A stretch of 62,283 nt of DNA, filler included, from Dugesia japonica (Eukaryota): the NCBI GenBank assembly GCA_001938525.1. It is 5 parts of 5 records of this genome, joined end to end, with 100 filler letters (N's around TTAATTAATTAA, not from the genome) between each part and the next. Parts side by side here need not be neighbours in the genome. Positions count along the whole stretch, not along the records: positions 31,745 to 41,444 come from MQRL01161711.1; 4 more parts are not named here. The stretch is one strand, 5' to 3'. Positions 2,848 to 43,840 of the stretch are shown here, piece after piece (the stretch's first letter is position 1; each line of letters begins with the position of its first letter). A program made the position numbers and the translations under genes. The notes under the pieces are model-generated. The model was not told the DNA's origin. It saw only the letters and a program-made list of their open reading frames with translations, and made no database searches.

Positions 2848-3478
2848 ATGGAGAGATTAAGAAATGATGCAGTCTATCAAATTGTAGGACCTAGTGGTTG
2901 TGGGAAAACTTTGTTTGTATGCCAATTATTGAAATCCAAGTTATTCAAGGCTATATTTAACAATATATACTGGCATAGGGGTGCAGATGAGGAGCATGGA
3001 TTGATTAAATCTGAATTTTGTAATATTAAAATAAAAATTATAAATGGTTTTGATTCTAATTGGAGCAAAAGATTAAGACCAAATGATTTTACTGTTGTTG
3101 ATGATCTGTATAAGGAGGCAAACAAAGAAAAAGATTTCAATAATTTATTCACAAAGATATCGAGACATGGTTATGTAACTGTGATATTTATAACTCAAAA
3201 ATCTATTTCATCAAAGAGGTAGTCATAGAACCCGTTATTTAAACGTGTAAGATTTGGTCTCATTCAAAAATTCTAGAGATCAAACTGTTGTTGATTTTCT
3301 AGCAAGACAAGCATAATCAAATAACAGACAATTTCTTATTGAATCCTTTAAAGATGCCAAAGAAAAACCACATGGATATTTATTTCTTGACTATAAACAA
3401 CAATGTACAGATGATTATAGAGTAAGAACAGATATATTCAATCCAAATGGTATCACAATATATAAACAAAATAGGTAA
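2848..3478 (+). pseudogene. Polinton A32/FtsK-like genome packaging ATPase (frameshifted)
   Basis: Walker A GPSGCGKT, Walker B TVVDDL and SRH..VTVIFITQ. Out-of-frame continuation gives KPHGYLFLD and RVRTDIF. Confidence 0.9.
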
Positions 3479-9190: not shown

Positions 9191-10624
9191 TGTTTTACCA
9201 ACCAGTACAACACAAATTAAAACTCTTTTCATGAAAACGTCCAAAAAGTTAGAGCCACAATAACTAAAAAAAATTGATGAAATTAAAGAATCAGACGGCC
9301 GATTTTCATTAAGCTATGATGAATCGACATCTATCAGAAATCGAAGATTTTTGAACCTGAATTTACATTCGACTGGCCAATTCCTTTCTCTGGCATTGAT
9401 TAGAGTAATGCGTAGAATTACAGCATTAAAGATGACGCAACTTGTCAAAGATCGGCTCCAAAAATATCATGTATGTATGTATGATGATGTTGTTGCATCT
9501 ATGACAGATAGAGCAAGGCTGATGCTTAAATTTGGGCACGATATAAGTACAAAGAGAAAAGTGTTCAGAACAACACAATCAACCATGCAGAAGATAATGA
9601 AGAAAATGAATATGAGGATGAAAGAATGGATGAAAACTTTACAGATGGGGATTAAGATGCTGTTTTTGAATTCATTTCTGATTACAACGAAATTATTAAA
9701 ACAAATCAGAACAATTGTCAAACTCTTCAAAAAGTTTCCATTTCGAAATGATGATCAATTGCAACCTCAGAACCTCAAAAGCCACGGGTTGTAAAGTCTC
9801 TGGTTTTGAACTGTCAAACTTGTTGAAACAGTTTGCATGCAATGTTGGAAAGATTTTATGCTTTGAGAAAAGAAGTTAAAGTTGCTATGATCCAGCTTAA
9901 ACAGATATTTGATCTAAATGATTAAGAATTAATAAAAACCAAAGAACTTTGTAATGTACTCGCCCCTCTAAAACTTGCAGTTAATTATCTGTCTCAAGAA
10001 AATGCTGATCTTCTTTTAGCTGAAAATGTTATTTCTTTCACTTTGAAAAAATTAAATGAATTAAAAACCCCATTAGGTGATGCGCTTGCTAAAAAATTAG
10101 AGATTAGAGTACATGAGCGCGAAAACCCCTATCTAATCCATTTATTTTAATATTTGAAAACCCCGGAATTTATTGATATGAATACTGATCAATTCGGACA
10201 AAAGATTCGAAGAAACAAAATTTCAACCTTGGCTAGCCAGCTAATGAGACGTTTGTTCAAGAGCAAAAGTAGTTTTGATGTTGAAGAAGTCAAGGTTGAC
10301 CAGAAAAAATCTATCTCCTTACAAAAACCCCATACTTCTCTTGCTGATGAACTTAATTCCTTCTTATATGAGACAGACAACAAATCCACATCAACAGAAA
10401 ATAAGTGCTGTCTAAGCATTATCAAGAAAGAAATGCAATTGTATGAAGCTACTAAGAAAAGATCTGAAAATCTAGAGAAAATTTGTTCATTTTGTCCAAC
10501 ATCTGTAGAGGCTGAAAGAGCTTTTTCTGTCATGGGTTTATTTGCAAACAGAATAAGAAACCGTTTAAATGATGATACTTTGAATGTTCTGATTGTAACA
10601 AAAAAGTATTATAATAAACAATAA
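9190..10624 (+). pseudogene. hAT-superfamily transposase relic
   Basis: FSLSYDESTSIRNRRFLNLNLH and MTDRA. C-terminal dimerisation motif PTSVEAERAFSVMG...RNRLNDDTLNVL. Confidence 0.85.
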
Positions 10625-13615: not shown

Positions 13616-14362
13616 TTAAGATGCTCGAATCCACGTAGGTTTTAAATAACCATGCCATTCAACTAGATATTGTTTATATTGGCCTTGACTTTTGATTTTT
13701 AGAATTGATTTGATTCGATATATACTCGATTTTTCCGGCAACACTTGTAATTCCTGCTCATAAAATTTACTTTGAATAATATTACTGTCTTCATCACGTT
13801 TTACATACATGACTATGGTTTGTCTCGTGTTGATTTCCGAAATTTGAAAGACTTCATAACTCCAGTTATTATCAAAGTTTTTAATGAATGGCGTAGTAAT
13901 AATTCGAGAAATCCGTACATGTTGTCCAATTTTATATTTTGGTTTTGGTTTTTATTGATGAAATACTGTACCATCATCTGTAACATCAACTGGTTTCTTT
14001 CCTCCTCCAATACCTCTATGTTTAGAATGGTTGCATGCATACATCATTTTTGGTAAAACATGTATCCATTTTTTGTTACCTTGTTTGGTAAAGAANTTGT
14101 TTAATCTAGTGCGTAGTGTTCGATTAAATCGCTCAACTAGAGCAGCCTTGTACTGAGAAAATACTGAATAGTGCAGTATACTATATTGTTTCAGTAATGA
14201 TTTGACCTGAGTATTGTAAAAATCTTTAGCCAAATAAGTTTGAATAGCTTTTGGATGAACATCTTTGAACATTGCCGTCAAAGCCAACAGCATATCTTTA
14301 CCAGATTTTCGTTTTACTGGAATCGCATGCGCAAATCGACTAAATACATCAACACATGTCAA
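13616..14362 (-). pseudogene. Polinton rve integrase with C-terminal chromodomain
   Basis: CVDVFSRFA, FYN, KAALVERFNRTLR and NHSKHRGIG; chromodomain YRIKSILK..YLVEWHGY...TWI. Confidence 0.9.
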
Positions 14363-14899
14363 AATATATCTATAATAATAAATTTTTCTTATAATATATT
14401 TAAATATTATGGTAATAATAATAATGATAATTATAATAATGATTAACGTTTAAAAGGTCATGATTAAATTGTGAAATTTTTCACGTTTAAAAATAATACG
14501 AGGCTCATCATTTTTCATTAATAAATTTAAAGGTTAGTGTGTAAAAGCTCATGCCAAAAGTGTGAAATTTCGTTGTGAAAAAAACATTTTAATTTTGGGA
14601 TTTCATATATAAATGCTCAATGCGCTACGCTTTAAAGTTTTTTTACGAACTCATATTTGTAGTGTAATAATTAACATGCTAATAAAAAAAATAATTATTT
14701 CATTTTTTACTTTTCGCACGTTTTAAACAAGTAATTAGGTGTGAAAAATCACACGTCAATAAAAAATAATTTAGTGTGAAAATTCTCACATTTAAAAAAC
14801 AATAAATAAATAAATGTAAAAGTCCATTGCTTACAATTAAAGTGTGAAATTTGGCTCTAAAGGTGTCAATTTTCACACTTATTGTTGTTTATATTTATT

Positions 14900-16293: not shown

Positions 16294-19200
16294 ATGACTA
16301 GCAAAATGAACAACAGTATGAGCATGAACTCGATGAAGAGAAAAATCAATAATGTAATTATGATTTTTTAATTAATTAATTATATTTAATTTGATTTTTT
16401 TAGATTGAAAACCGTGGAAATAATAAGAGAAGAAGAATAACAATGATTATATTCGCAAATCCGATTTCAAAGAAGTATAAATCAGTCTCCAATTCATGGT
16501 GAAGAATTCAGAAATGAAATCTGTTCAAATTCCAGAGAATGTGAGGAATAAAGTTGAAGAAGAAGTTAAGAAATTCAAACATTATAAGGTGCAATTTGGA
16601 ATCGATGTTGAATGGTCGTGGTCACATAAGACTATAGGATACTCAAATGAATTTATGGATAAAATACAAGAAAAAGCAAATGCTGAAATTTCAATGCATT
16701 CAGAACTAAGCAATGGATGGAAGATTAGCAGAATATTAGAGCTACGATTTAATTTGACGAAATATGTAAAGGTAATTTATCCATATGGTCTATCATTCAT
16801 TCAGAGTCCTGCAGCATTACGTCGATTCAAGGCAATAATTAATGTTAATAATAAAGACAACAAATGTTTCATATATAGCATACTTGTAGTGCTTAAGTAT
16901 GATATAGTTAAGGATAATCGGGATAGACCGCAAAAATATAACAGTTTCTTAAACGAATTAGTATATGATGAGCAGAAGATGTCAATAAAGCTCATTAACA
17001 TTCCAGAATTTGAAAACAAAAATAATTTATCAATCACTGTGTTTAAATGTAATCAAACTATTGATAAAGAAGAAAATGAAATTTTATATAAAAACCCATA
17101 TGTGGATATCATTTTCAGAAAAAAAAATCTCAAATGGACTCCCTGTAACTTTACTAATTTTTAAAATCATCAAGAGTTTTATTATACTGCAGTGGTAAAT
17201 TTAGATCGATTGCTAAATTTACACGGTCAAACACAAAAAATTTAAATTAGAAGAAAATAGTGTATCAAGTGTTTACATAGATTTTGGACACAATCAACAT
17301 TCGATCGTCATGTAGCTCTATGTACCTCAAATACTGAGAAAACGACCTGATATAAAATGCCCGAAGAAAAAGAATTAAAATTCAAAGATTACGGAAAAGC
17401 AATAACCCCAGCTTTCGTAATATATGCAGATATTGAAGCTGTTCTTGCATCAGAAAAATCTAGTCTAGTAAAACATATGCCAATAGCTGTAGGGCTTTTC
17501 TTAATACCGTTATTGGAAACAGCTATAAAATGTAAGTACTATTCATTTTCTGTTACTAACTGTATGGTTGAGTTTTTACAAAGTATTGATAAGTTGTCGA
17601 AGAATGTAGTAACCCTTTGGTATAAAAAACATATGTGTTCAGAAATGAACTTGACAGCAACAGATCAAGAAGCCTTTACAAAAAGCACACTATGTTATAT
17701 GTGTGGAAACAATAAAAACAATCTGGTTCGTGATTATGATCACTATAATGAAAAATACCTTGGAGCTGCATGTAATCAGTGTAATTTATCACGCAAGGTC
17801 ATGTTTCATAACTTTAAGGGTTATGATTCACATCACATTATTAAATATGCACTCAACCAATTTTCATAATAGGATCTAAATCCAATTGCACAATCAACTG
17901 AAATGTTTTTAGCAATGTTTACACGTGTTGGAAATCATCTTTCAATAAGATTTATTGATTCATTCCAGTTTCTAAGTTCCAGTTTATCAACATTGACAAA
18001 ACCCTTGAAAGCTGGCCAATAAAATCAACTGAATTTCTACATGGACAACAAAACAAGGGTATACTCCCTTACAAATTTGCAACTTCATATGAAATGCTTA
18101 TAAATCGAACCAAATTACCACCACAATGTTCAGAAACAACAAGTGGAGAATATGAAGTTAGAAATATACTTGTTGGCAGATGTCTTTCAAACATTTCGTA
18201 AAAAGCACTTAAAGAGCATAATTTAGGGCCTCTACAATTTGCTTAATTGCCAGGGTTGTGTTGGCCAAGTGCTCTCAAGTCAATGAATATATCAATTGAA
18301 TTACTCCAAGATGCTGAAATGCATCGTCTATTTAAGTTAGGAATTCGTGAAGGAATGACTTTTGTGAACAAACATTATGTCCAGACAGATAAGAATACCT
18401 GCTTGAAATTGATCTTGAAATACCTATCAAACATCATGATAGATTAGATCAATTACCTTTGGCTCCAGAACATAAATATCCACCTGAATCGAAAGTTAAG
18501 AAGTTATTGATGACACATTAACCAAAACGACATTATATCATATATTGGAAATTATTGGAATTATATATAAAGCTTGAAGCTCCTGTGACGACAGTGCATA
18601 GAATAATACAGTTCAAACAAACAGAAATATTCGCGAATTATATTAATGTAACTTCTGTGAGAAGAGCGGAATCAAAGTCCAAATTTGAAAAGGATTTCTA
18701 CAAACTAATAAATAATGCACTATATGGTAAGACAGTGACGAATTTAAAGAATCGCATTAATCTTCGGCTATGTAATAATGAGAAGAAATTTGTGACTTAC
18801 ACTAGTAAAATTACATTAAAAAAACAATGGATATCGCAGAAGGGCTCGAGGCTGTATTGCTAGAAAAAGATACTATATGTCTAGATAGACCGAGTTACAT
18901 TGGTCAAGTTGTTCTAGATTTGAGTAAATTGCGAATGTATAGGCTCCAATATGCAGAGTTAGAAAAATATCGACAACAATTTCATTGTGAAATTGATATA
19001 ATTGCCGGCGATACTGACAGTCTTTTCTTATCATTTACCGGAGTAGATAAAAACCAATTCTTGTCTCTGATGAAATCGGATGGTCTGGTGGATATAAGAA
19101 ATTACCCAAAAGATCATCCACTCTATTCCAGCAATGTGGCTAACAAAATTGGATTGTTTAAAGATGAAGGAGAAGGTAAAGATTATACTTAATTGGTATT

Positions 19201-19533
19201 CCTTAAGCCCAAATGTTATAGTTTAAAGAAAGAAGATGCTAGTACAACAATAAAGGCAAAAGAGGTCAGTTTGAAACAACCAGATATCAATCATCAAAAC
19301 TATTTAAATGCGTACAGTACAGATAGATATGGAGAAGAAGAACCAGACAAAATTATGCAGACTAGCTTCCAGTTAATAAATCATAAAATTTTATTAAAAT
19401 AGTGAGTATGGAAAGTGTATTGTCTTGCCGGGATGATAAGAGCATTTGGAAAAAAAGAAATAATAGTATGGCTTATGGTCATCACAAAATTAATAACGAA
19501 GAAGAAGAAGGCGATGAAATGATGATTATTTGA
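16294..19533 (+). pseudogene. Protein-primed family B DNA polymerase (pPolB) pseudogene
   Basis: SNGW, NKCFIYSIL (vOTU-like), YADIEA, DYDHY..GAACNQCN, FHNFKGYDSH, KLINNALYGK, GDTDS, KPKCY and DDK. Many frameshifts; putative 5' intron at 16354-16403. Confidence 0.92.
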
Positions 19534-21632: not shown

Positions 21633-21732
21633 NNNNNNNNNNNNNNNNNNNNNNNNNNNNNNNNNNNNNNNNNNNNTTAATTAATTAANNNNNNNNNNNN
21701 NNNNNNNNNNNNNNNNNNNNNNNNNNNNNNNN
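21633..21732. other. Artificial contig spacer
   Basis: 44 N + TTAATTAATTAA (stops in all six frames) + 44 N. Confidence 0.95.
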
Positions 21733-21819: not shown

Positions 21820-22640
21820 TTGTTTAATCACCTTTGTTATGAAATATATTATTTTACAACTCAAGTGTTAATTTTTATGGAAACAAATAACAAAATAAAA
21901 GATTCTGAGGAAACTACTTACATGGCTAATGTTAATTTAATACATGATTTAGATAATATTCAAAATTCTACAACTAGTGAGAAAATTCAAAGAGCAATAG
22001 TAAAACTTGCAATGAAGGGAAAAATAATGTAAGGTTCTGGTAATGAAAGAAGTAATACAGCTTTAGCTAAAGTTAACGCTTCTGTTGATAATGTAGACCA
22101 ACGGATCCAAGAATTACATAAAACATTTATTAAAAGAAAAGAAAACTGGCTCAAAGTAAAAATATTTTACAAAGATGAAACATGGTCAGTTGATTTAATG
22201 TTTTTAGGTCCATGTACTTGTTATGACAGAAAACCTAAAGCAAATATCCCTGTTTTAATAATTATAGATTTATACACTAGATTTGTTTTTTTACAAGTTC
22301 ATAGAAATTATATTTGAAACAAATAATAGAACACCAGTAAATTTATGGGTTGATCATGGAAAAGTATTTTACAATAAAGTATTTATGGAATTTTGTAAAG
22401 ATAATGACATTAATTTGTATTCTACTTCTTTAGAAACTGAACTTCAAGGTAAAGCAGTTTTTGCTGAAAGTGTGATAAGAACATTAAAAAGAGAATTATA
22501 CAAAATCTTTTCATGTCAAAAGAATCAAAAATGGGATGAAGAAATGTTACAAGATTTAGTTTAAGATTATAATAATTCCGTACATAGTAGTATAAAAATT
22601 ACACCTCAACAAGCTTCTGACAATCTTCAACTTTTAATAG
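21820..22640 (+). pseudogene. Polinton integrase with an upstream in-frame PLA2X-like segment
   Basis: ANVNLIHDLDNIQN..EKIQRAIVKLAMKGKIM*GSG continues in frame into ELHKTF..DETWSVDL and IIDLYTRF. After a frameshift it gives WVDHGKVFYN, AESVIRTLK and YNNSVHSSIKITP. Confidence 0.82.
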
Positions 22641-31644: not shown

Positions 31645-31744
31645 NNNNNNNNNNNNNNNNNNNNNNNNNNNNNNNNNNNNNNNNNNNNTTAATTAATTAA
31701 NNNNNNNNNNNNNNNNNNNNNNNNNNNNNNNNNNNNNNNNNNNN
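31645..31744. other. Artificial contig spacer
   Basis: 44N-TTAATTAATTAA-44N. Confidence 0.95.
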
Positions 31745-31883
31745 ACTCATATTCTCCAAATCCTGAAACCCGCAGTTCGACATCAAAACCTAAAACCTAA
31801 AACCGGGATATGCATATCCCAAATAAAAAAAATATAAATCCCAAATAAAAAAAGTGATAGGATTAAATTGGTGGTAGTATAAA

Positions 31884-32324
31884 ATGGCAAACCCAAATGA
31901 AAATGAAAATAATTTAAGGATATATAAAAATTATAACATTAAATATTTTTTAGAAAATATTGTTAAATTTGAAAGAATAAAATTTCACCCAAGATTAAAA
32001 AATATTAAAAGATTACAAAATGAAATTCTACAAATTATCATCGATTATTTTTACAGATTCGGGAGAATTGTGATAAGCATAGATGTAGGAGGTAAATATA
32101 TAAAAATGATTAATGGTGAATTAGTTGAAAACAATTTTAGTTGTTATTGTTGTGATATTAGAATTAGTACAGAAAGTGAAATTAAAAATTCTGTAAATAA
32201 AATTTTTAAGAAACTCGATAAACACATTAAAGATTCTGATAATGATGATACAGAATTTGACAGAGAATTTAATTGGAAACTTAAAAATATTGTAGGAGTT
32301 AAAATTACAATATACAAATATTAA
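31884..32324 (+). CDS. Stand-alone paralog of the pPolB terminal-protein-like domain (146 aa)
   Basis: Colinear with pPolB aa 122-252: YKNYNIKYFLEN/YEHYKIKYFLES, IIIDYF/IITKYF, GKYIKMIN/GNYSKMVN, RISTESEI/RIILESEI, W..KNIVGVKITIYKY/W..NYIVDYKIQMCKY. Confidence 0.88.
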   Translation: MANPNENENNLRIYKNYNIKYFLENIVKFERIKFHPRLKNIKRLQNEILQIIIDYFYRFGRIVISIDVGGKYIKMINGELVENNFSCYCCDIRISTESEIKNSVNKIFKKLDKHIKDSDNDDTEFDREFNWKLKNIVGVKITIYKY

Positions 32325-32453
32325 AATGTTTTTTTTATGGAATAAATGAAAGTGTCAAATAAATATAAGTTTAAATAAATATAAATCTAAATAAAAAAAT
32401 AAAAATAAGCGTAGTAAAAAAGTGTAGTATGATTAAATTGTATATTTAGAAAA

Positions 32454-35400
32454 ATGGCAACGGCATCAACTCCTATCTTTAAATGTAATCATTGCAATAG
32501 AACATTTAAGAATAATGCAGGTCTTGGATCTCACACCAAATACAGAGTATGTTCTTCTATTTCAACTAAAATTAAATGTCCAAAACCTGGCTGTAATAAA
32601 TATTTCAATACAAAATTAGGTTTAGATAATCATTTAACATCAACAACTTGTGGAACTCTACTAGAAGTAAATTTAGAATGTACAATTTGTAATAGAAAAT
32701 TTAAAACTATATCCCACACAAGAGGACATTATAATTCTAATAGACATAAAGATAAAGTAAATCAACAAACAAACGCACCACCCTATATTGATCTAGAAAT
32801 TGAAGCCATTTTGGGAATGTATGAACACTATAAAATTAAATATTTTTTAGAAAGTGCAGTTGAAATGGGAAATCCTGTTGAAGAAAATATTTTAGAATAT
32901 GTTCAAGATATCAAAATATTTAAAGATGAGGCCGAAGAAATTATTACCAAGTATTTTAACTACGGTAAAAAAATTCTTGTATCAATGTCGGCAAAAGGTA
33001 ATTATTCAAAAATGGTTAATAATGTATACGAAGAAAGAGAATTTGTTTCTTATTCAATCAATAATAGAATTATTTTAGAAAGTGAAATAGCAGACGTTAC
33101 AACTCGTATGTTTACTTTTTTAGAAAATAAGATTCAAGATGAAGATAAACAAGAATCCGGATGGACGTTTAATTATATTGTGGATTATAAAATTCAAATG
33201 TGTAAATATCAATCTTTATCAGGAGCCACATTTCAAAAATTACCATTTAAAAAACCAGGATTATTAAATATAAAAAATTATGATAATAAATGTTTTGCCT
33301 ATTCAATCTTGGGCCACAAATATAGAGATTTTCATAATCCAGAAAGAGTGGGTAATTACACCCCACATTTAGATGAATTAAATTTTGAAGGATTAGAATT
33401 CCCAATAAATATTTGTGATGTGGAAAAATTTGAAGAATTAAATGATTGGAGTGTAAATGTATTTTCAGTAAGTAATACTAAAAAATTAGAACCGTTACAC
33501 ATTTCCCATTATAATACAAGACCCTCATCATTAGAAAAGAAATGTAATTTATTAATTTACAAAGAACATTACATGTTATGTAAAAATCTTAATGTGTTTT
33601 TTACAGCAAATGGAAATCAAAGTTATTTATGTGTGAGATGCATGAATTGTTATTCAAGCGAAGAAGTATTAAAGAAACATCAAGATCTTTGTGTTGAGCA
33701 CAAACCTAATAATATTAAATTCCCAAAAGAAGAATATTATACTTTTACTAAACATTATCAGAAAAATAAAGCAGCATTTTATATGTGTGGGGATTTTGAA
33801 TCTTATACTAACACCATAACAAACAAACAAAAAACTTTATCTCTTGGGATTTATGTAAAATCCGATTATCCAAATTTATTACAAAGTAAATATTATGAAT
33901 TTTCTGGTGAAGATACACATCAACAAATGTTTAAGTTTTTGGAAGAGATGAATGAAAAAATAGACGACATCAAAGAAAATAAATTAATAAAAGAATACAT
34001 GGGAAGAAATCATCCATTATTTGATGAAAATGTTAATTGTAGATATTTTGATAGACCAGTTATAGATGAAGTAATTGATCACAATCATTTCAATGGAAAA
34101 TTTCGCGGATGGGTTTGCAGAAAATGTAACATAAGAGATCTTTCAGTTAGAAATTTATTTATTCCATTTTATTTCCATAATTTATCAGGATACGACTCTC
34201 ATTTATTTTTCCTTGAATTATTAGAATATTCTCCAGGAAAAGTAAAAAATATAATTCCTTACAGTTCAGAAAATTACATTTCATTCCATTATGGGAGTAT
34301 TAGATTTCTAGATTCCAATAGATTAATTCCATTTACACCAGTTGAAAAAATGGGGCAATTATTAACTAAATCTAAGAATTATCCAATACTAAAATCTTTC
34401 AATTTAAAACCTAAAAAAGCAATATTTCCTTATGAATATGTAAAAGGAAAAGATATTTACCAAGTTGAAGAATTATTAAAAAAAACTACACCACCAACAA
34501 AAGATGATTTCTTTAACACATTAAGACAAAAAGAAATATCTGACAATGAACATGATGAATTTTTAATAGATTTTTTGAGTTTCAATAATATGTGGGAATA
34601 CACACTCCATTATATGAAATTGGATGTTTTAATTTTAGCAGATTATATTGAAAATTTTAGAAACAAAACAATGTCAAGCGTCCTTAAACTTGACCCATGT
34701 TATTCTTATTCAATGCCCGGTTTTGGATGGGAATGTGGAAATTATTATGCCTCTGCAAAATTAAAATATGCAAAACCCGAAATTTATAATATATTTTTAC
34801 TAGGTGAAAAAGGTCTTAATGGTGGCCCATCATCTGAATTGGGTGAAAGACAAATATTTGGACATGATAAAATTAAAGAGCCATGTGGTAGACGATTAAA
34901 TCAAGCACAATATGAAGATTTATTAAAAATGGTTAATACTCATGAATTTCTTCCAGATGAATATGTTGATGATTTAATGGAAGACACATTTATTAAATAT
35001 TTGGATGAAAATTCACTTTATGGAACTGGAATGACAAAGGCACTTCCAACTGGAGAAATGAGAGAATGCACTGACTTAACATATGAAAAAGCAACAGATA
35101 CACTGAATTATATTTATGAAGTGGATTTAGATTATCCACCAGAGATACATGAGAAAACAAGATACTTTCCATTATGTCCTGAGAAAATAAATATCACAGA
35201 AGACATGTTAAGTAATTATCAAAAAAGTTTTAATAGGAAGCTAGGAAAAGAAAATATAAAATTAACACTAAATCAATTCGATAAAAAAAATTATGTAACA
35301 CTAGGATCAACACTAGATTTATATCTCGAAATAGGAATGAAAATAACAAAGATTCACAGAAAGATAGAAATGGAAGTAAAACCATGGTTTAGAGATTATG

Positions 35401-36290
35401 TATTAAAATTAGTTGAATTGAGAAAAGAAGCCAAAGCAAATGATGATGCATCAGGTGATCACATTTATAAATTAATGTTAAATGCTTATTATGGAAAAAG
35501 TTTAGAGAATATTAGAAATCGATGCGATGTTGAAATTGTTGACAACGATAGGGATTACCAGAAATTCGCATCAAAACTAACATTTAAATCTAGTAAAATA
35601 TTTACAACAAATGAAACAGGAAAAGGAAAAATAGCAGCAATGCATATGATGAAATCGAATTTATATTACAACAAATTTCCTTATCTTGGATTTACTATTT
35701 TGGAACATGCAAAATTTATAATGTATGATTTTGTGTATAGAAAAATGCAACCATTAGTTGGGCAAGGAAATTTTAAAATACACTACACCGATACAGATTC
35801 ATTATTTGTAGAGATAAAAGGAAGAGAAAATCTAAAAAAATTAGAAAGTTTACTTGGAAATGAACTCGGTCAAATGAAAGATGAATTACCAAATGGGGAA
35901 ATAATTCAAGCAGATTTTATAAGACCTAAAAATTATGCTTATAACTACACTACTACATCAACATCAGCACCAGGCCTTAACTTTGCATCGAGAAATAAAG
36001 GAATTCAAAGTTCAAATAAATTTTTGATGAAAGATTATGATGAAGTTTTAAATAATCCAAAGAAAACATTTTATGGAGCAAATTATTCATTGAAATCAAA
36101 GAATCACGAAATAGAATTAACTAGACAAAAGAAAGTTGCATTAAATGCTTATAGTGATAAATTAATATTAGAAGATAATGGAATTCGAGGATGGCCACAC
36201 GGAAATAAATTTGAATGTGATAATTGTGAGATTTGGCATTTAAGATTAGACTTGATAAATAAAACATTAACATGCATATTTTTATTATAA
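32454..36290 (+). CDS. polB: Protein-primed family B DNA polymerase (1278 aa) with N-terminal zinc fingers, TP-like and vOTU-like domains and an EndoVII-like insert
   Basis: Three N-terminal C2HC/C2H2 fingers; ESGW; NKCFAYSIL...EHY. Exonuclease motifs GDFES, FHNLSGYD and Y...D; DHNHFNGKFRGWVCRKCN. Polymerase motifs DENSLYG, KLMLNAYYGK, YTDTDS and PKNY. Confidence 0.97.
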   Translation: MATASTPIFKCNHCNRTFKNNAGLGSHTKYRVCSSISTKIKCPKPGCNKYFNTKLGLDNHLTSTTCGTLLEVNLECTICNRKFKTISHTRGHYNSNRHKDKVNQQTNAPPYIDLEIEAILGMYEHYKIKYFLESAVEMGNPVEENILEYVQDIKIFKDEAEEIITKYFNYGKKILVSMSAKGNYSKMVNNVYEEREFVSYSINNRIILESEIADVTTRMFTFLENKIQDEDKQESGWTFNYIVDYKIQMCKYQSLSGATFQKLPFKKPGLLNIKNYDNKCFAYSILGHKYRDFHNPERVGNYTPHLDELNFEGLEFPINICDVEKFEELNDWSVNVFSVSNTKKLEPLHISHYNTRPSSLEKKCNLLIYKEHYMLCKNLNVFFTANGNQSYLCVRCMNCYSSEEVLKKHQDLCVEHKPNNIKFPKEEYYTFTKHYQKNKAAFYMCGDFESYTNTITNKQKTLSLGIYVKSDYPNLLQSKYYEFSGEDTHQQMFKFLEEMNEKIDDIKENKLIKEYMGRNHPLFDENVNCRYFDRPVIDEVIDHNHFNGKFRGWVCRKCNIRDLSVRNLFIPFYFHNLSGYDSHLFFLELLEYSPGKVKNIIPYSSENYISFHYGSIRFLDSNRLIPFTPVEKMGQLLTKSKNYPILKSFNLKPKKAIFPYEYVKGKDIYQVEELLKKTTPPTKDDFFNTLRQKEISDNEHDEFLIDFLSFNNMWEYTLHYMKLDVLILADYIENFRNKTMSSVLKLDPCYSYSMPGFGWECGNYYASAKLKYAKPEIYNIFLLGEKGLNGGPSSELGERQIFGHDKIKEPCGRRLNQAQYEDLLKMVNTHEFLPDEYVDDLMEDTFIKYLDENSLYGTGMTKALPTGEMRECTDLTYEKATDTLNYIYEVDLDYPPEIHEKTRYFPLCPEKINITEDMLSNYQKSFNRKLGKENIKLTLNQFDKKNYVTLGSTLDLYLEIGMKITKIHRKIEMEVKPWFRDYVLKLVELRKEAKANDDASGDHIYKLMLNAYYGKSLENIRNRCDVEIVDNDRDYQKFASKLTFKSSKIFTTNETGKGKIAAMHMMKSNLYYNKFPYLGFTILEHAKFIMYDFVYRKMQPLVGQGNFKIHYTDTDSLFVEIKGRENLKKLESLLGNELGQMKDELPNGEIIQADFIRPKNYAYNYTTTSTSAPGLNFASRNKGIQSSNKFLMKDYDEVLNNPKKTFYGANYSLKSKNHEIELTRQKKVALNAYSDKLILEDNGIRGWPHGNKFECDNCEIWHLRLDLINKTLTCIFLL

Positions 36291-36325
36291 TAAAATTTTC
36301 TTATAATAAAATTTTCTTATAATAA

Positions 36326-36844
36326 ATGGTAGAAAATCTAAAAGTAGTAAATCCAACTGAAGAAGAGTTAGAGAAAATTGTAAATAATAAAAAATGTAAA
36401 TCTGTAAAAATTGATGGTAAAAATTATTATATCAGTAAAAAAGTAAAAGAAGAGCTTAAATCTCGCAAAGAAAGTAGTAAAAATGGGGGATTTGCATTCC
36501 TAGCTGCAATCCCAGCAATTATTGGGGCGCTAGCCGGAATCGCGTCCGGAATCGCAAGTACCGTAGCTAGCTCTAAAGATGCAATCAAAACTCAGAAAGA
36601 AATCAAGGCTTTAGACTCTGCAGGTAATGGTATTTATTTAAATCCATATCAAGGTTCTGCAGTTCATAAATATTTTAAAAATATTATCGAAAGTAGCGGC
36701 AGCAGTAGTGGGGAAAACTTTAGAGATTTAACTAGAAACTTTAAAGATGGAATCGAAATAATTAAACAGGGTAATAGATTATATTTAAATCCTTACAAAG
36801 GAACTGGACTCTATTTAAACCCTTACACCACTAACTTAAAATAA
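36326..36844 (+). CDS. Core/membrane-active virion protein with GG|F amphipathic helix and three YLNPY repeats
   Basis: KNGGFAFLAAIPAIIGALAGIASGIA; GNGIYLNPY, GNRLYLNPY and GTGLYLNPY. Confidence 0.75.
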   Translation: MVENLKVVNPTEEELEKIVNNKKCKSVKIDGKNYYISKKVKEELKSRKESSKNGGFAFLAAIPAIIGALAGIASGIASTVASSKDAIKTQKEIKALDSAGNGIYLNPYQGSAVHKYFKNIIESSGSSSGENFRDLTRNFKDGIEIIKQGNRLYLNPYKGTGLYLNPYTTNLK

Positions 36845-36864
36845 TTAAATTAGTGCTTTATAAA

Positions 36865-38361
36865 ATGAATACAAAAGAAGTTGAAGAAAGAATTAGAGAT
36901 TTAAGAGCATTAGTAAAATTTCAAGAAAATTATAATAATTTTTTCTGTGGAAACACCCTAGAATCAAGAGAATTACAAAGTCAATTATCATTCATGCAAC
37001 AACCAACAATTTCAGCAATAAATAAAATTAATAATATTTCATTAAAATCAAATTTATTAGAAACTAGAGATTTAACAAAATTCTTTTTAAATGAAAAGGT
37101 AATACCATTTATTCCTGAATATTCAATTGAAAATGTTAATGCTGAAGGAAGATTAACTCAAACAATTATTCCAACATTTTCAAAATTAAATGTTACTGCA
37201 CCAAATCAAGTTAAAAGTTTTATGGAGATAACTTTAAAGGAAAATAAAATTTATTTATTTGAAGAAAATGGAGAAAAAAATTTCTTGTTTAAATCTGAAG
37301 TTATTCCTTATACTGATGGAATTTTTAGAATGATTTTAGGAAATAAAGATGGAAAAGAAACACCCCAAGAAGTAGAAGTTTATTTAAATAAATTTTTAAC
37401 ACCAATTCCTACTAATTCTCTTTATGTTAATGAATTAAAAAATAAATTTAGAAAAGTTATTACAAGGGATATACCTAAAAGAGCCGCAAAAAGAATAAAA
37501 GAAGAATTTAAATCTGCTCCAGGAAGTGAAGGAGAAGTATCAGAAATTCCATTAGATGTAGAACCAGTAGTAGTAGTAAAAGCACATTCACTACAAGAAC
37601 CAATAAAAGCACATTCACTACAACATTCAGAATCAAAAGAAAGAGAACAAGTATCAACAGAAGAAGAAGAAGAATCAAAATCAAAATCAAAATCAAAATC
37701 AAAATCAAAATCAAAATCGGTACTAGAAAAAGAAGAAGAAGAAAGAGATATACTTTTTAAACTTTTAAATGATAAAGATACAGTTGCATTTAGACCCTCT
37801 AGTTTAGAGATTAATACTGGAAAATTAACAGAAGCAACAACCCCTCTTGTTGGAACAGTTACAATTAGACCTAGTAATAATGAGTATAGTAAAGTAGTAT
37901 TGAAAAGTTCAAGGGTGGGAATAGTTTTCTTTGAGGTTGGTGATAAAAAATGTTTTTCAGTTAATGATGTAATTCATGATTATTCAGATGAATTTGTTGA
38001 CATACTTATGGGGAACATTACTAATATTGGATTAGATGTTGAAACTAAAAAGTTAATCAGGATATATTTTAAAGGTGTAATAATAAACCAAGACGTTGTT
38101 AAGAATGATAAATATTGTAAATATTTAAAATCATTACTAACATCAATACCAACACCAACATCAACACCAAAATCAACACCCAAAAAAGGAAAAAGTCTCG
38201 GACCAATAGATTTATTTGAAAAATTAACATTATTAATTTCAGCTGTAAAATCTGGGCATAATAATTTGGAAAGTGACATTAAAAAAACTTGTAAAAAATT
38301 AAAGATGAGGGTGTTAATTTCTAATAAAATTTATAGTAAATATAAGGAGAAATATTTCTAA
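36865..38361 (+). CDS. Conserved Polinton protein (resembles the family annotated gasderminX in adintoviruses) with a duplicated core domain
   Basis: C-terminal PIDLFEKLTLLISAVKSGHNN resembles the PNELVDRLRLL.AS..AGN motif, and YTDGIFRMI resembles Y..T.GL.ELI. Family name is from memory and unverified. Confidence 0.6.
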   Translation: MNTKEVEERIRDLRALVKFQENYNNFFCGNTLESRELQSQLSFMQQPTISAINKINNISLKSNLLETRDLTKFFLNEKVIPFIPEYSIENVNAEGRLTQTIIPTFSKLNVTAPNQVKSFMEITLKENKIYLFEENGEKNFLFKSEVIPYTDGIFRMILGNKDGKETPQEVEVYLNKFLTPIPTNSLYVNELKNKFRKVITRDIPKRAAKRIKEEFKSAPGSEGEVSEIPLDVEPVVVVKAHSLQEPIKAHSLQHSESKEREQVSTEEEEESKSKSKSKSKSKSKSVLEKEEEERDILFKLLNDKDTVAFRPSSLEINTGKLTEATTPLVGTVTIRPSNNEYSKVVLKSSRVGIVFFEVGDKKCFSVNDVIHDYSDEFVDILMGNITNIGLDVETKKLIRIYFKGVIINQDVVKNDKYCKYLKSLLTSIPTPTSTPKSTPKKGKSLGPIDLFEKLTLLISAVKSGHNNLESDIKKTCKKLKMRVLISNKIYSKYKEKYF

Positions 38362-38378
38362 ATCTATAAATAAATTAT

Positions 38379-38393
38379 GCCCGCGCAGCGGGC
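38379..38393 (+). terminator. GCA-triloop hairpin after the 502-aa gene
   Basis: GCCCGC-GCA-GCGGGC-TTGTT, starting 18 nt after the stop; terminator function is inferred. Confidence 0.5.
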
Positions 38394-38439
38394 TTGTTAA
38401 ATGTTTAAATTTTAAATGTTAAAATTTAGATTTTAAAAA

Positions 38440-38877
38440 ATGGAACTATCAAAGCCTGCTTCGCAGACTAAATATAATTTAATAGATTTCCTAAAAACTT
38501 TCGGGATTAATACAACTACAAATTTTGATTTATATTCAATAGCAGATTTTTTAGATTTAGATTTGGAGATTTGTATGAAGGATGAGATTTTAGATTTGGA
38601 TGCCACCCAAAATTATATTTTTAATTACCAAAATTCAAATCAAAAAGGAACACATTGGACATGTTTTTCTAAGGGTTATTATTTTGATTCTTTTGGGTTA
38701 AAACCTCTAGAACAAATTTCTAAATTCACAAAAAAATATAATGAAATTGTAGTCCAACATTACGGCACGAAAATTTGTGGAATTTTATGTATTTATTTTT
38801 TGCACAAGATTCAAGATGTTGGGTTTGATGATATTATTTTAGAAATGAAGAAATTGTATGATTTAATAAAAAATTAG
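38440..38877 (+). CDS. Adenain-like cysteine maturation protease
   Basis: NYQNSNQKGTHW, YYFDSFG and VQHYGTKICGILC give an intact H-D-Q-C set. Confidence 0.95.
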   Translation: MELSKPASQTKYNLIDFLKTFGINTTTNFDLYSIADFLDLDLEICMKDEILDLDATQNYIFNYQNSNQKGTHWTCFSKGYYFDSFGLKPLEQISKFTKKYNEIVVQHYGTKICGILCIYFLHKIQDVGFDDIILEMKKLYDLIKN

Positions 38878-38892
38878 TCTGCGCAGCAGGCT
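38876..38892 (+). terminator. GCA-triloop hairpin overlapping the protease stop
   Basis: AGTCTGC-GCA-GCAGGCT-TTTTT. Confidence 0.5.
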
Positions 38893-38930
38893 TTTTTAAG
38901 CTTAATTGTTATTATTTTAGTGTGGCATTT

Positions 38931-38952
38931 CCAATACGATTAATCGTATTGG
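38931..38952. repeat. Perfect 22-bp palindrome between convergent genes
   Basis: CCAATACGATT/AATCGTATTGG. Confidence 0.9.
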
Positions 38953-39018
38953 CACACCACTGCTACACCTTAATCCATTAACAGTAGTATTTAAGAATTA
39001 ACCCCAAAGGGACCCAAA

Positions 39019-39033
39019 GCTTGCTGCGCAATC
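39019..39033 (-). terminator. GCA-triloop hairpin after the penton stop
   Basis: Minus strand reads GATTGC-GCA-GCAAGC-TTT. Confidence 0.45.
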
Positions 39034-39042
39034 ATATTTTTA

Positions 39043-39702
39043 TTATAATCTATACTTTCTTAAATGTACTAAAATCGAAATATTCTCTTGGTTAAAATCA
39101 ATTGTATTAAAGTTTTCATCAACAACATTAAATCTTAAACTATCAATGTACTTTGTATTAATTTTAGAATAANNNNNNNNNNNNNNNNNNNNNNNNNNNN
39201 NNNNNNNNNNNNNNNNNNNNNNNNNNNNNNNNNNNNNNNNNNNNNNNNNNNNNNNNGATTCTCCTTTTGAAGATTTTACATAATTACCTTTAACGATATT
39301 ACAAGTTAAATTTATCATATTAATATTTGAGATATCAATTTTATTTTCAGAATAATATTTTCCTGCTGGATAAGATTTTACTGCAAAACCTAAAATTTTA
39401 TGAAAAAAAGATTTTTCCTCGAATGTTAATGTATTAGTGATTTTCATATTACATTTTGTTGTAGATGTATCTGCTGAAACTTCAATTCCATACTTTTCTA
39501 ATCTTGATGATATTTCTTTTATTTCATAAGCTCCAGGTTCTATTCTATTTTTACTATTAAATTTATTATTTTCATTTGTAATGTTAAAAATAATGTTATA
39601 GCAAATTAATCCGAGTTCATATTCGGAATCTAATTCTAAAGGAAATTTTAAATCTAATTTTAAATCATTTTCTTTTCCAACTATTAAGAATTGATGTGAC
39701 AT
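39043..39702 (-). CDS. Minor capsid (penton) protein; contains a sequence gap
   Basis: FPLELDSEYELGL..YN.IFNI..NNKF, IEPGAYEIKEI, ILGF, INLTCNIVKGNY and IDFNQENISILVHLR. Confidence 0.88.
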   Translation of the reverse strand: MSHQFLIVGKENDLKLDLKFPLELDSEYELGLICYNIIFNITNENNKFNSKNRIEPGAYEIKEISSRLEKYGIEVSADTSTTKCNMKITNTLTFEEKSFFHKILGFAVKSYPAGKYYSENKIDISNINMINLTCNIVKGNYVKSSKGEXXXXXXXXXXXXXXXXXXXXXXXXXXXXXYSKINTKYIDSLRFNVVDENFNTIDFNQENISILVHLRKYRL

Positions 39703-39736
39703 TGAATGCTATTTATTAATGATAAAAATTAATAAA

Positions 39737-39751
39737 GCCTACTGCGTAGGC
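39737..39751 (-). terminator. GCA-triloop hairpin overlapping the stop of the 477-aa ORF
   Basis: Minus strand reads GCCTAC-GCA-GTAGGC-TTT. Confidence 0.5.
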
Positions 39752-41172
39752 ATAATTCTATTTTCTTCAAGAATTTCTCTAACCTCACGAAAATTTGTTG
39801 TAATCATGAAAAATGAAAAACTGCTTTTTAATATAATTGGGAAATCATCTGCCAACTTACTAAATTGAATTAATCTGTTTATGTATCTTACTGAATAATT
39901 AATTCTCTTTAATTTTAAGTGTTCTAAAAGTTTTTTATTCTTTTTTAATCTAAATTTTAATATTCTTAGTGATTCCCCCAAATTTGAATAACCTATTAAA
40001 GTAATTCGTTTAGCTTTTACTACTACACCATCCCACTGATAAATTTTTGTTGATATTTCTTCTAAATCAAGTGATTCAAAATCTTCTTTTTTATCTAAAA
40101 ATTTTAAACTGTTTTCAACAAATTCATTTTCCTCACATCCTTCTTGTGTAAAAGATTCTAAAAGCCCATTTTTAAAACTTAATTTATTTTCTAGTACTAT
40201 TGCTACTCCTTCTGGTTCTGCTTCTCCTTCTACTGCTTCTACTACTGGTTTTGTTACTACTACTACCGATTCCGTTTCTGATTTCAATCCCGATTCCGCT
40301 TCCAAATCTGATTGTGCTAGTAGTACTGGTTTTGGTTTTGGTTTTGGTTCCGATGGTGTGGCTTCAGAATTAGAATTAATTTTAGAACTAGAATCAGAAT
40401 CAGAATCAGAATCAGAATTAGAATTAGAATTAGAATTAGAATAAGAATTAATTTCAGAATCAGAATTAATTTCAGAATCAGAATTAATTTCAGAATCAGA
40501 ATTAATTTCTTCTTCAAATGTTTTTCTTCTTGGTGGTTCAGATGTTATTGTTGTTGTTGTTGGTGGTGGTAGTAGTGTTGCTATTACTACATTTGTTGTT
40601 GGCAGTGTTGGTAGTGTTGGTGTTGGTAGTGATTTTGATTTTGGTGCTCTCGGTTTTCGCGCCCCACTACTTTTTGGTTTTCGTGCTTTTTTTGGTTTTA
40701 CTACAGGATTTGGTTTTGATGTTGGTAGTGTTGGTGTTGTTGTTGGTGGTGCACTACTACCTGCACTACTAGTACTTGGCATTTCACTACCAATTATTTC
40801 ACCGCCTGCACCAAGTTTTACAATTTTATTTTGAGCTTCATTTTTAGGATCCCAATAATGTTTTACTGGGGTTTTCATATTCTTTCCATCTTGTAACTTT
40901 TTAAGGGCATCTTTAACCCTACATTTATTCTCAAACATATAATTAACAATATATCTAAAATCTATCGTATTTTCTAATACCGATTCAAAGTAATATTTGT
41001 CATCACTAAGCTTAGCAAGAGCTTCTAAACTTAGTATAGTCTTATCTAAATTAAGAATGAGATTTATTAGCATGTGTATTTTATAAAGAATTAATTTTAA
41101 TCGTACAGAAATTTTAATCATATGGAAATATTTATATTTTTTTATTTTTATTAATTCTTTAAAAAATAGCAT
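39739..41172 (-). CDS. Hypothetical protein with a P/T/K-rich and (INSDSE)n linker and a basic helical C-terminal domain (start may be 41073)
   Basis: Uninterrupted 477-aa ORF inside the intact element. Confidence 0.75.
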   Translation of the reverse strand: MLFFKELIKIKKYKYFHMIKISVRLKLILYKIHMLINLILNLDKTILSLEALAKLSDDKYYFESVLENTIDFRYIVNYMFENKCRVKDALKKLQDGKNMKTPVKHYWDPKNEAQNKIVKLGAGGEIIGSEMPSTSSAGSSAPPTTTPTLPTSKPNPVVKPKKARKPKSSGARKPRAPKSKSLPTPTLPTLPTTNVVIATLLPPPTTTTITSEPPRRKTFEEEINSDSEINSDSEINSDSEINSYSNSNSNSNSDSDSDSDSSSKINSNSEATPSEPKPKPKPVLLAQSDLEAESGLKSETESVVVVTKPVVEAVEGEAEPEGVAIVLENKLSFKNGLLESFTQEGCEENEFVENSLKFLDKKEDFESLDLEEISTKIYQWDGVVVKAKRITLIGYSNLGESLRILKFRLKKNKKLLEHLKLKRINYSVRYINRLIQFSKLADDFPIILKSSFSFFMITTNFREVREILEENRIMPTQ

Positions 41173-41181
41173 ACTAAAATA

Positions 41182-41444
41182 ATGAACAAGTTCGGGGAAA
41201 GTTTATTTACAATAAATAATTCACAATTAATAAAACATGTTGACTCTAAAATTAGAATATCAGAATCTAAAAATGAAAATAAATTTGTAAATGAATCTGG
41301 TGATACAATAACAACTCTTAAAATAAAGGATGATCCTAAAGATCTTTCTGATGCAGTTAATTTAAAATACATTAAAATGTTGGAAGATAAAGTTGAAAGA
41401 CATGAATTAATTTTTACTAAACTTTTAAATATAGAAAAATATAA
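41182..41444 (+). CDS. Fibre-like protein, 5' part (truncated by gap)
   Basis: MNKFG; FVNESGDTIT...DPKDLSDAVNLKYI resembles the phage/Polinton fibre motif YV.K.GDTMTG...P....DA.NK.YV. Confidence 0.6.
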
Positions 41445-41544
41445 NNNNNNNNNNNNNNNNNNNNNNNNNNNNNNNNNNNNNNNNNNNNTTAATTAATTAA
41501 NNNNNNNNNNNNNNNNNNNNNNNNNNNNNNNNNNNNNNNNNNNN
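41445..41544. other. Artificial contig spacer
   Basis: 44N-TTAATTAATTAA-44N. Confidence 0.95.
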
Positions 41545-42900: not shown

Positions 42901-42959
42901 TTCAGGACTTTTTTGAACTAGTCACAAACTGATTTATAAATAAATGTTTTTTTATTAAA

Positions 42960-43840
42960 AAGCTTATGTTGACTTATTATACTAAGGAAAATTATGTGCT
43001 ATATTGAAAACTGCTACAAATGTACATGAGATTAGGAGTTGAAGTTAAAGTGGTCCATAGAGCGGTATGATTTACTCAAGCGTGCATCTTCGAAAATTAC
43101 CATGCAAAAAATACTGCATCAAAAGAAGAATGTAATACCGAGCTTGAGAAAAATTATTACAAACTTTTGAACAACAGTTTGTACGAAAAATTGGTTGAGA
43201 ATTTGAAGAACCGGATGAATTTGCGATTATGTAATACAAGTAAGAAGTTGGTAACATACGTATCAAAACCTAGCTTCCGGAAATCTATCAAAATTGATGA
43301 GGACCTGATAGCGGCTTTGATGAATAAAGAGTCAGCATGCTATGATCGTCCCAGTTACATTGGACAATCTGTACTTAACCTAAGTAATTTATAGATGTAC
43401 CAGCTACAGTACATTGACCTCGAGAAGTACAGAAAACAAGAAAATTGTAGAATTAATGTTGTAACTGGCGATGCTGACAGCTTTTTTCTGGAAATAACTG
43501 GTGTAAAACTAGAAAAACGTTTATCATTAATGATAAACGATTATTTGTTGGATACATCGAATTATAGTAAGCAGCATCCCCTGTATAGTAATAATTTAAA
43601 TTCAGTCATTGGGAAGTTTAAGGATGAGAATAATGGGAATAAGTATCGAGAATGGTGTTCATGAGGCCGATATGCTATCTTATTAAAAACACATTTTTCA
43701 TCAGTCATACCTTGACTGTTACAATGAGAATCGATCGCTCTTTGTAGATCAATTTAGGATCAGCAGTAAGAACCGCCAGTTATTTCGTGTTAGATCTAAG
43801 AAAATAGCTTTATGGAATAACGATGATAAGAGGTAATGAC
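42960..43840 (+). pseudogene. pPolB C-terminal fragment
   Basis: NNSLYEKLVENLKNRMNLRLCN, DRPSYIGQ, GDADS, GKFKDE and DDKR; close to the 18500-19480 copy. Confidence 0.9.

Follow-up and report, generated by a model that had tools for sequence, protein, structure and literature searches.

A free-standing duplicate of the terminal protein domain beside an intact pPolB in an incomplete Polinton of Dugesia japonica

Analysis of a 62,283-nucleotide stretch of DNA from Dugesia japonica (GenBank assembly GCA_001938525.1; five joined parts, from now on referred to as the window and numbered from its first letter) revealed a Polinton in which the terminal protein (TP) domain is encoded twice, once fused within the polymerase pPolB and once as a separate upstream gene. 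The separate gene, ORF146, occupies 31884..32324 (+), from an ATG at 31884 to a stop codon ending at 32324, and encodes a free-standing protein of 146 amino acids with a predicted TP fold (little-finger/PAD-like) and an isoelectric point (pI) of 9.1. Judged from its sequence, ORF146 is a local duplicate of the TP domain of the adjoining pPolB; it is a TP paralogue and not a demonstrated TP. We tentatively favor the reading, somewhat short of an even chance and built on sequence, modeling and analogy, that ORF146 is a non-priming accessory protein at DNA ends or in the initiation complex which would tune replication initiation.

The relationship between the two copies is clear from pairwise comparison. 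BLASTP aligns ORF146 residues 11-146 with pPolB residues 120-252 with 48 of 141 positions identical (34%, E 2e-16), and the Smith-Waterman score of 179 lies 20 standard deviations above that of shuffled sequences (45 +/- 6.5; 0/2000 as high; reversed control 44), confirming the intact free-standing TP-domain duplicate proposed in a preliminary description of the window. By this match to the fused TP, ORF146 is homologous to the pPolB TP domain (D1). At the DNA level the copies are 65% identical over 297 columns from 31899, with 149 of 384 aligned bases differing, and the match extends back to about ORF146 residue 6 and pPolB residue 115. The alignment, originally described as end to end, does reach pPolB Tyr252, but the first approximately 5 residues of ORF146 do not align to the TP domain. 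The ORF146 stop codon sits in place of pPolB codon 253, so that the protein ends with the last strand of the domain. No Pfam match was found for ORF146 and the zinc fingers of pPolB have no counterpart in it, as previously noted. The likeness also includes the upstream region and the start of ORF146 (31814..31893 (+)), specifically about 70 bases before both start codons and the first seven coding bases. Its local DNA score of 63 exceeds all 2000 shuffles (mean 31, maximum 55), with six other genes of the element scoring 16-41, suggesting that the promoter or leader was duplicated along with the TP region. In a comparison with 153 proteins and 6767 open reading frames (ORFs), ORF146 strongly matched only the fused TP and vice versa, and in a tree of 47 TP rows the two are sisters with support of 100/93.

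Four of 24 listed sequencing runs were compared with the window, one of which may be its source. Contigs from run X1 are identical over 31964-32456 and 32428-32590, so that together they reach from ORF146 across the spacer into pPolB. Run X3, from another study, yielded one contig identical over 31982-32156 and another over 31982-32312 that shows 36 differences and is, on balance, 3 letters shorter; it represents a second copy about 89% alike. An assembly artefact was rejected because the two TP copies are only 65% alike and identical contigs are found in X1 and X3. Summed contig depth is 52-75 on ORF146 and in the thousands on the polymerase core; as the zinc fingers are equally low, this is no sign that relatives lack ORF146. 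Apparent joints from the spacer to 33225/33235 involve approximately 22 A/T-rich letters and were taken as chance. Six reads of RNA run X12 stop at 32405, 15 letters behind an AATAAA, and continue with A's, at a place that would suit the end of an ORF146 mRNA, but were not counted as their matching parts average approximately 40 A/T-rich letters and none is 99% alike.

Downstream of ORF146, a 129 bp spacer (32325..32453 (+), 15% GC) containing several AATAAA/ATTAAA hexamers and the pPolB upstream region leads to an intact pPolB of 1278 amino acids (32454-36290 (+)). Its domain order is zinc fingers, TP, vOTU, exonuclease with an endonuclease-VII-like insert, and polymerase, which includes the TP-vOTU-exonuclease-palm layout of Polintons/Mavericks. 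Pfam identifies DNA_pol_B_2 (E 1e-13), zinc fingers and a weak Endonuclease_7, and pPolB motifs were located at 446, 575, 849, 1006 and 1111. At E <= 1e-30, 1684 of 7980 scored sequences are relatives, the named polymerases among them coming from corals and an anemone. The N-terminal C2H2-type zinc-finger region spans residues 9-99 (32478..32750 (+); Pfam matches at 9-29 and 74-99) and is followed by the fused TP domain (D1, residues 115-252, 32796..33209 (+), pI 4.8) with Ser235-Gly236-Trp237, the TP/vOTU linker Q253-G257 (33210..33224 (+)) and the vOTU-like protease domain with Cys280 and His372 (33225..33650 (+), end approximate). Ser235, Tyr252, Cys280, His372 and the QSLSGA motif (253-258) are all located where the preliminary description had placed them. 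A TP profile was built from pPolB relatives, excluding sequences of the window: 121 pPolBs were reduced to 102 with enough sequence ahead of the vOTU Cys and then to 45 non-redundant ones. The fused TP scores 27.4 bits on this profile (E 1.5e-10 for one comparison). The Ser235 column contains Ser in 41/45 relatives and Thr in 2/45, followed by Gly and then Trp (38/45 each), and Cys280 and His372 are invariant (45/45). In the G257 column 37 relatives have Gly, 7 Ala and 1 Pro.

The structure and role of this domain have been predicted previously by modeling (Krupovic, Kuhn, Fischer, Koonin; 10.1101/2024.03.18.585575; this and the other papers cited here are drawn on from the portions of their text that were available). 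The D1 fold of pPolB has a Ser or Tyr with a nearby Gly/Pro in the loop before the last strand, and the TP role of the N-terminal domain, the priming serine and release by vOTU are all predictions of this 2024 work, the available text of which maps no Polinton cleavage site (10.1101/2024.03.18.585575). The linker in the window is accordingly a predicted, unmapped cleavage region: ORF146 was said to stop at the cleavage point, and its stop does correspond to the position directly preceding QSLSGA, but the cleavage point itself is a prediction. As the conserved Ser and an intact vOTU are retained, the fused TP is likely the covalent primer of the element, with priming by Ser235 itself a prediction. 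Two further features of the fused copy were observed. Glu234 (33153-33155) directly precedes the conserved Ser at a position where 43/45 relatives have Gly, and the domain is unusually acidic, with a net charge of -7 compared with +1 +/- 4 in relatives. The fused copy may therefore also have changed after duplication. The motif noted originally as (E/G)SGW has the family form G-S-G-W, Glu being the residue of the window pPolB.

In ORF146 the predicted priming site is lost. Phe129-Asn130 occupy the Ser-Gly columns while the Trp is retained, and an acidic loop formed by residues 121-131 (32244..32276 (+)) is placed by the model between helix 2 and the last strand. The acidic stretch is a six-residue insertion, containing Thr123 in D-T-E, followed by R-E-F-N-W, and the insert reads like a 12-base tandem duplication. 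The previous proposal that an acidic insert replaced the motif was correct with respect to the loss of Ser-Gly, but the insert adds to the motif columns instead of filling them. No Gly or Pro is found within residues 113-134, and Ser118 and Thr123 lie outside the linking column. The arrangement expected at a linking position, namely a Ser or Tyr between helix 2 and strand 4 with a Gly/Pro nearby, is not found in ORF146, which is therefore probably not nucleotidylated at the usual site. An SNGW sequence in a second, decayed pPolB of the window (16496-17164), cited earlier in favor of the motif, proved to be weak support, its Ser lying one column ahead of the conserved one.

An alignment-guided model of ORF146, based on 71 rows including pPolB relatives, reached a pLDDT (predicted local distance difference test) score of 74. 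It consists of a helix (37-59), two strands (62-76 and 79-94), a second helix (98-120), the loop (121-131) and a last strand (132-145), and the predicted fold as a whole is a four-stranded sheet with two helices, similar to the little-finger/PAD domain. When 48,161 PDB representatives were ranked against it, Y-family polymerases took the first six places, the matched part being the little-finger/PAD region at their C-terminus (Z 6.0-6.7, root mean square deviation 3.1-4.4, 94-116 aligned residues). In BFVD, an adintovirus C2H2 protein (E 1e-5) and a MELD virus PolB (E 4e-4) rank first. By its model, ORF146 thus has the Y-family little-finger fold reported for D1 (10.1101/2024.03.18.585575), in line with the 27.4 bits of the fused copy on the profile and with the earlier expectation that pPolB residues 122-252 are a TP region. 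A single-sequence model shows a similar order of elements.

ORF146 is very probably under selection to remain a folded protein, with constraints that are relaxed or changed, because its frame stayed open over much change and its hydrophobic core is retained. In neutral evolution, the chance that 133 codons stay free of stops is 3e-3 at 0.2 substitutions per site and 4e-4 at 0.3; 21/25 hydrophobic columns are retained, the same number as in the fused copy. Outside the motif, ORF146 is the better fit to the family profile at 31/65 positions where the copies differ. In a codon model, omega = 1 can be rejected with p between 3e-5 and 0.01, but as an average over both copies. The open frame and kept core thus agree with the original argument that a diverged yet intact gene indicates selection, whereas pairwise dN/dS alone shows none for the duplicate. 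The end branch of ORF146 in the 47-row tree is about four times as long as that of the fused copy (1.96 vs 0.49 changes per column), and ORF146 is flagged there for its long branch and odd composition. The two copies also differ in charge (pI 9.1-9.4 vs 4.8; Arg 8 vs 3), mostly within residues 24-47, so that the basic turn of ORF146 sits around its first strand and helix.

No second example of this gene layout was found. The TP of each of 111 pPolB loci from metagenomes and viral contigs was compared with the sequence of its own locus; 37 loci were dropped as cut or fragmented. The loci include some near-duplicates and are all distant relatives, and those from metagenomes are the best 80 of 535. 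A second TP copy was found in none of the 74 loci with a near-whole TP (48/74 with at least 600 bp upstream), the window control giving E 5e-16, and the gene pair that had been suggested for a search in other Polintons therefore did not recur among them. Stray matches were seen in 7/74 loci (E 0.007-0.044). A scan of 6767 ORFs from the 111 loci and the window with the TP profile, which misses ORF146 itself, found no locus with two whole TPs, and no protein with two TP domains was present among the 137/153 with a TP match. One locus, L034, in which the TP frame stops at the junction, was considered as a natural split and rejected as a decayed copy with several breaks. A search of ORF146 against 5.8 billion clusters (lengths 80-256) gave 6 candidates, none of which scored, and phmmer with fused TP residues 112-257 found 0 matches among 1.84 billion representatives. 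Viral contigs searched with pPolB 112-399, and with ORF146 as confirming sequence, yielded nothing. The Atlas held no usable match for ORF146; for the fused TP its best matches (0.90, 0.88, 0.88) are unnamed or unrelated-looking clusters and were kept as leads only. As the domain evolves too fast, these blank database searches with ORF146 and the fused TP say little, and the layout is rare, though not necessarily unique. The literature searched, which did not cover most subscription journals, contained no report of a Polinton with a duplicated TP, nor of a regulator gene of this type.

The window pPolB shares the TP (D1)-vOTU (D2)-exonuclease-palm layout described for Polintons, and ORF146 the modeled D1 fold, but published Polintons, as far as the available text describes them, have one TP per element, whereas here there is an extra free copy without the motif (10.1101/2024.03.18.585575). 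Stand-alone TP-fold genes beside pPolB are known from adenovirids (pTP) and the coral Polinton StCAV; in those splits the polymerase lacks a TP and the free TP primes, while here pPolB keeps both TP and vOTU and the free copy lacks Ser-Gly (10.1101/2024.03.18.585575). Specifically, the window polymerase has its own TP (residues 115-252 with Ser235, in one open frame), and its vOTU is not inactivated as in adenovirids. Because the fused copy retains Ser235, Cys280 and His372, ORF146 is a duplicate and not the product of an adenovirus-like split. Another likeness is found in linear plasmids of Streptomyces, where lone tpg homologues, for example two on SLP2, represent spare TP genes beside a working one; they belong to an unrelated family, are thought to be acquired and mostly retain Thr/Ser at the priming site, and 3/5 are defective (PMC3572947). 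The predicted fold is also that of the little-finger/PAD domain of Y-family polymerases (PDB 2r8j, 5kt4, 7nv1, 4ir1, 1unn; Z 5.7-6.7), a non-catalytic DNA-binding domain. There it is an appendage of the polymerase, whereas ORF146 is a separate protein with 4-10% identity and putative DNA binding. By analogy, ORF146 would be a return to the non-covalent role of the little-finger domain.

We propose that the 5' part of pPolB was duplicated in tandem together with its upstream region, that the zinc fingers would then have disappeared from the copy in frame, and that a stop would have arisen directly after the last strand of the TP. With the stop in this place, ORF146 needs no vOTU cleavage. A division of labor may have followed in which the fused copy, with Ser235 and an intact vOTU, stays the covalent primer, while the free copy would be a basic protein of DNA-binding-type fold that is not nucleotidylated at the usual site. 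ORF146 probably shares the expression signals of pPolB. The non-priming accessory role is put first because the fused TP keeps its Ser, because the free copy is basic, cleavage-free and of a fold that is DNA-binding in Y-family polymerases (10.1101/2024.03.18.585575), and because priming-dead TPs still bind their partners. Ser232 mutants of the phi29 TP (S232T/S232C) bind polymerase and DNA (PMC4974454), and Tyr194 mutants of the Bam35 TP (Y194F/Y194A) still occupy the polymerase (PMC5175343). These TPs without a linking residue provide an analogy for a decoy, but they are laboratory mutants with other folds, whereas ORF146 would be a natural gene. A narrower version, which we consider doubtful, makes ORF146 a natural non-priming regulator that would be co-expressed from the duplicated promoter, bind genome ends or the polymerase, carry the acidic loop in place of the nucleotide-linked serine, and limit copy number or shut out related elements. 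Thus, of the three roles originally suggested, the non-priming option is preferred, an alternative primer is kept alive by Thr123 in its Asp-Thr-Glu setting, and exclusion of competing Polintons is without evidence. A complex prediction of ORF146 11-146 with pPolB 405-1255, run without alignments, scored 0.00 and counts neither way.

Several observations weigh against a non-priming accessory role and the structural and selective arguments behind it. The TPs of phi29 and Bam35 fold unlike D1, making the precedents analogies, and Ser235 as priming residue is itself predicted. Fused TPs make up the alignment that drives the ORF146 model, which shows the family fold more than that of ORF146 itself: residues 4-35 are below pLDDT 50, the region of the first strand being of low confidence, and the single-sequence model reaches a pLDDT of only 46. 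Foldseek found nothing below E 0.001 in the PDB, although Y-family polymerases nonetheless fill the list, and Z values below 8 can reflect a common arrangement. On the TP profile ORF146 scores 9.0 bits, not above the best of 200 shuffles (9.2). The proportions of nonsynonymous and synonymous differences between the copies (pN 0.39, pS 0.37) are about equal, and omega 0.5 is still allowed for the core under F61. ORF146 drifts to A+T (20.8% GC vs 25.3%), has no Ala and has more Ile, Asn and Lys, the drift favoring these three and Phe, so that its basic charge and hydrophobic count are inflated. Given the net +1 +/- 4 of TPs from relatives, the acidic fused copy is as unusual as the basic free one. 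The layout is seen in this one lineage only, and in an incomplete assembly. Lastly, about a quarter of RNA run X12 contained no read on 31745-32188 and none 99% alike anywhere on the stretch; as the whole element is uncovered, this blank is uninformative on ORF146.

The fourfold rate asymmetry, the charge reversal and the disappearance of the key motif from a protein whose core is retained would fit any neofunctionalization, and ORF146 could have been co-opted for a job outside initiation, such as packaging, nuclear delivery, transcription control or countering host defense, with only the fold kept. We regard this as unlikely: the place of ORF146 and its pPolB-like upstream region suggest co-expression with the replicase, and there is no pointer to any specific other partner.

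More unlikely still is a second, ready-made primer: ORF146 would prime via Thr123 (or Ser118) of its acidic loop, which is longer than usual, and the element would have two primers, one of them cleavage-free. Thr123 does belong to the loop that joins helix 2 to the last strand, where linking residues sit, and has Asp122 and Glu124 as neighbors. Similarly, Ser232 of phi29 stands between Asp231 and Glu233, and Thr114 of Streptomyces Tpg depends on an acidic residue at 115 (PMC3572947). The Thr found in the Ser column of 2/45 relatives fits this idea, and split Polintons such as coral StCAV illustrate that a free TP can exist (10.1101/2024.03.18.585575). However, Thr123 is located 8 residues before the conserved Trp instead of the usual 2, in an insert that looks like a simple 12-nt tandem duplication, and no Gly/Pro is near it, whereas all D1 linking loops examined in the available part of the modeling study had one (10.1101/2024.03.18.585575). 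In phi29, Ser-to-Thr alone abolished priming (PMC4974454), and a second primer is unneeded because the fused copy retains Ser235 and the protease.

A dispensable relic is improbable, too. In this reading ORF146 would be a partial duplicate for which selection is weak or has lapsed, comparable to defective spare tpg genes on the linear plasmids of Streptomyces, where 3/5 lone homologues tested were non-functional (PMC3572947). The near-equal pN and pS, the A+T drift, the long branch, the profile score at shuffle level, the absence of a second copy from 74 other loci and the lack of RNA in X12, with the element uncovered, would all fit a relic. Yet an unselected frame is rarely open over this much change, the indels relative to pPolB are all in frame, the core columns are retained as well as in the fused copy, and the second copy in run X3 has a net change of 3 letters. 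Least probable of all, ORF146 would be the leftover TP of an earlier polymerase, displaced by the recombined pPolB of a related element and kept for recognizing element ends: pPolB exchange between lineages is reported to be frequent (10.64898/2026.10.13.758929), the host holds many related pPolB pieces, and unequal recombination between relatives could also account for the tandem order and the two similar upstream regions, but the two TPs are sisters among the sampled rows, a sample without TPs from other elements of the same host, and end recognition without the priming Ser still requires the fused TP as primer.

The contig carrying the element (31745..41444, MQRL01161711.1, strand not assigned) is 9.7 kb long with N runs on both sides (31645-31744 and 41445-41544). 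It encodes, in order, ORF146, pPolB, a 172-aa protein, a 498-aa protein, an adenain-like protease, a 219-aa protein, a 477-aa protein and a cut 104-aa gene. Within 31745-41444, cut at both ends, no match to an rve integrase, packaging ATPase or major capsid protein was found, and no terminal inverted repeat is among the 25 longest repeat pairs; as these components were not found within the contig, the element is incomplete in the assembly. The protease (38440-38877) is a weak Peptidase_C5 match in Pfam (E 0.02) and matches ORFs adjoining pPolB in the fetched loci (E 4e-12), thus providing the adenain-like protease of a Polinton. The 219-aa gene is presumably minor-capsid-like, based on its motifs. 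The 172-aa gene (36326-36844 (+)) encodes an NGG-F site followed by a Gly/Ala-rich amphipathic stretch, as well as a YLNPY motif in three copies, has very high summed depth in the sequencing runs, and is taken by us to resemble the membrane-lytic core genes of adintoviruses. Three tandem repeats of approximately 16 bp at 36275-36331 span the pPolB stop codon and the spacer to this gene. G+C-rich hairpins, each consisting of a 6-bp stem and a C-GNA-G loop, occur at four places, 38384 (+), 38882 (+), 39746 (-) and 38463 (-), with a weaker one near 39030 (-); the four are the only ones in the window (shuffle mean 0.005). Directly 3' of a stop codon lie three of them, one each for the 498-aa gene, the protease and the 477-aa gene, and the stems vary with paired changes. 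They are possibly transcription-end or late-gene signals; no such hairpin is found behind ORF146 or pPolB.

The window as a whole is A+T-rich and strewn with decayed Polinton pieces. Two rve integrase relics (13646-14380 (-) and 22310-22618 (+)) and a packaging ATPase relic (2848-3448 (+)) are decayed and located on other contigs than the intact element. Two pPolB relics (16496-19312 (+) and 42954-43661 (+)) contain stops and frameshifts and are 23-27% identical to the intact pPolB; the first retains a partial TP domain (12 bits on the TP profile). A fragment of a hAT transposase dimerization domain was found at 10178-10624 (+) (E 1.6e-4). The joins at 31645-31744, 41445-41544, 21633-21732 and 52867-52966 each consist of N44, a 12-base all-frame stop linker and N44, which is an assembly marker without biology, and the flanks of the element are not proven neighbors.

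With ORF146 and the fused TP, a single element supplies two natural paralogues that differ in the presence of Ser-Gly, and thus a built-in control for the predicted TP role, priming serine and vOTU release. The ends of the free copy, corresponding to approximately pPolB residues 115-252, mark what can fold alone. ORF146 further shows a route to a free TP gene via duplication instead of splitting. If ORF146 is indeed a regulator, it would represent a new means by which a protein-primed replicon controls its own initiation or competes with its relatives.

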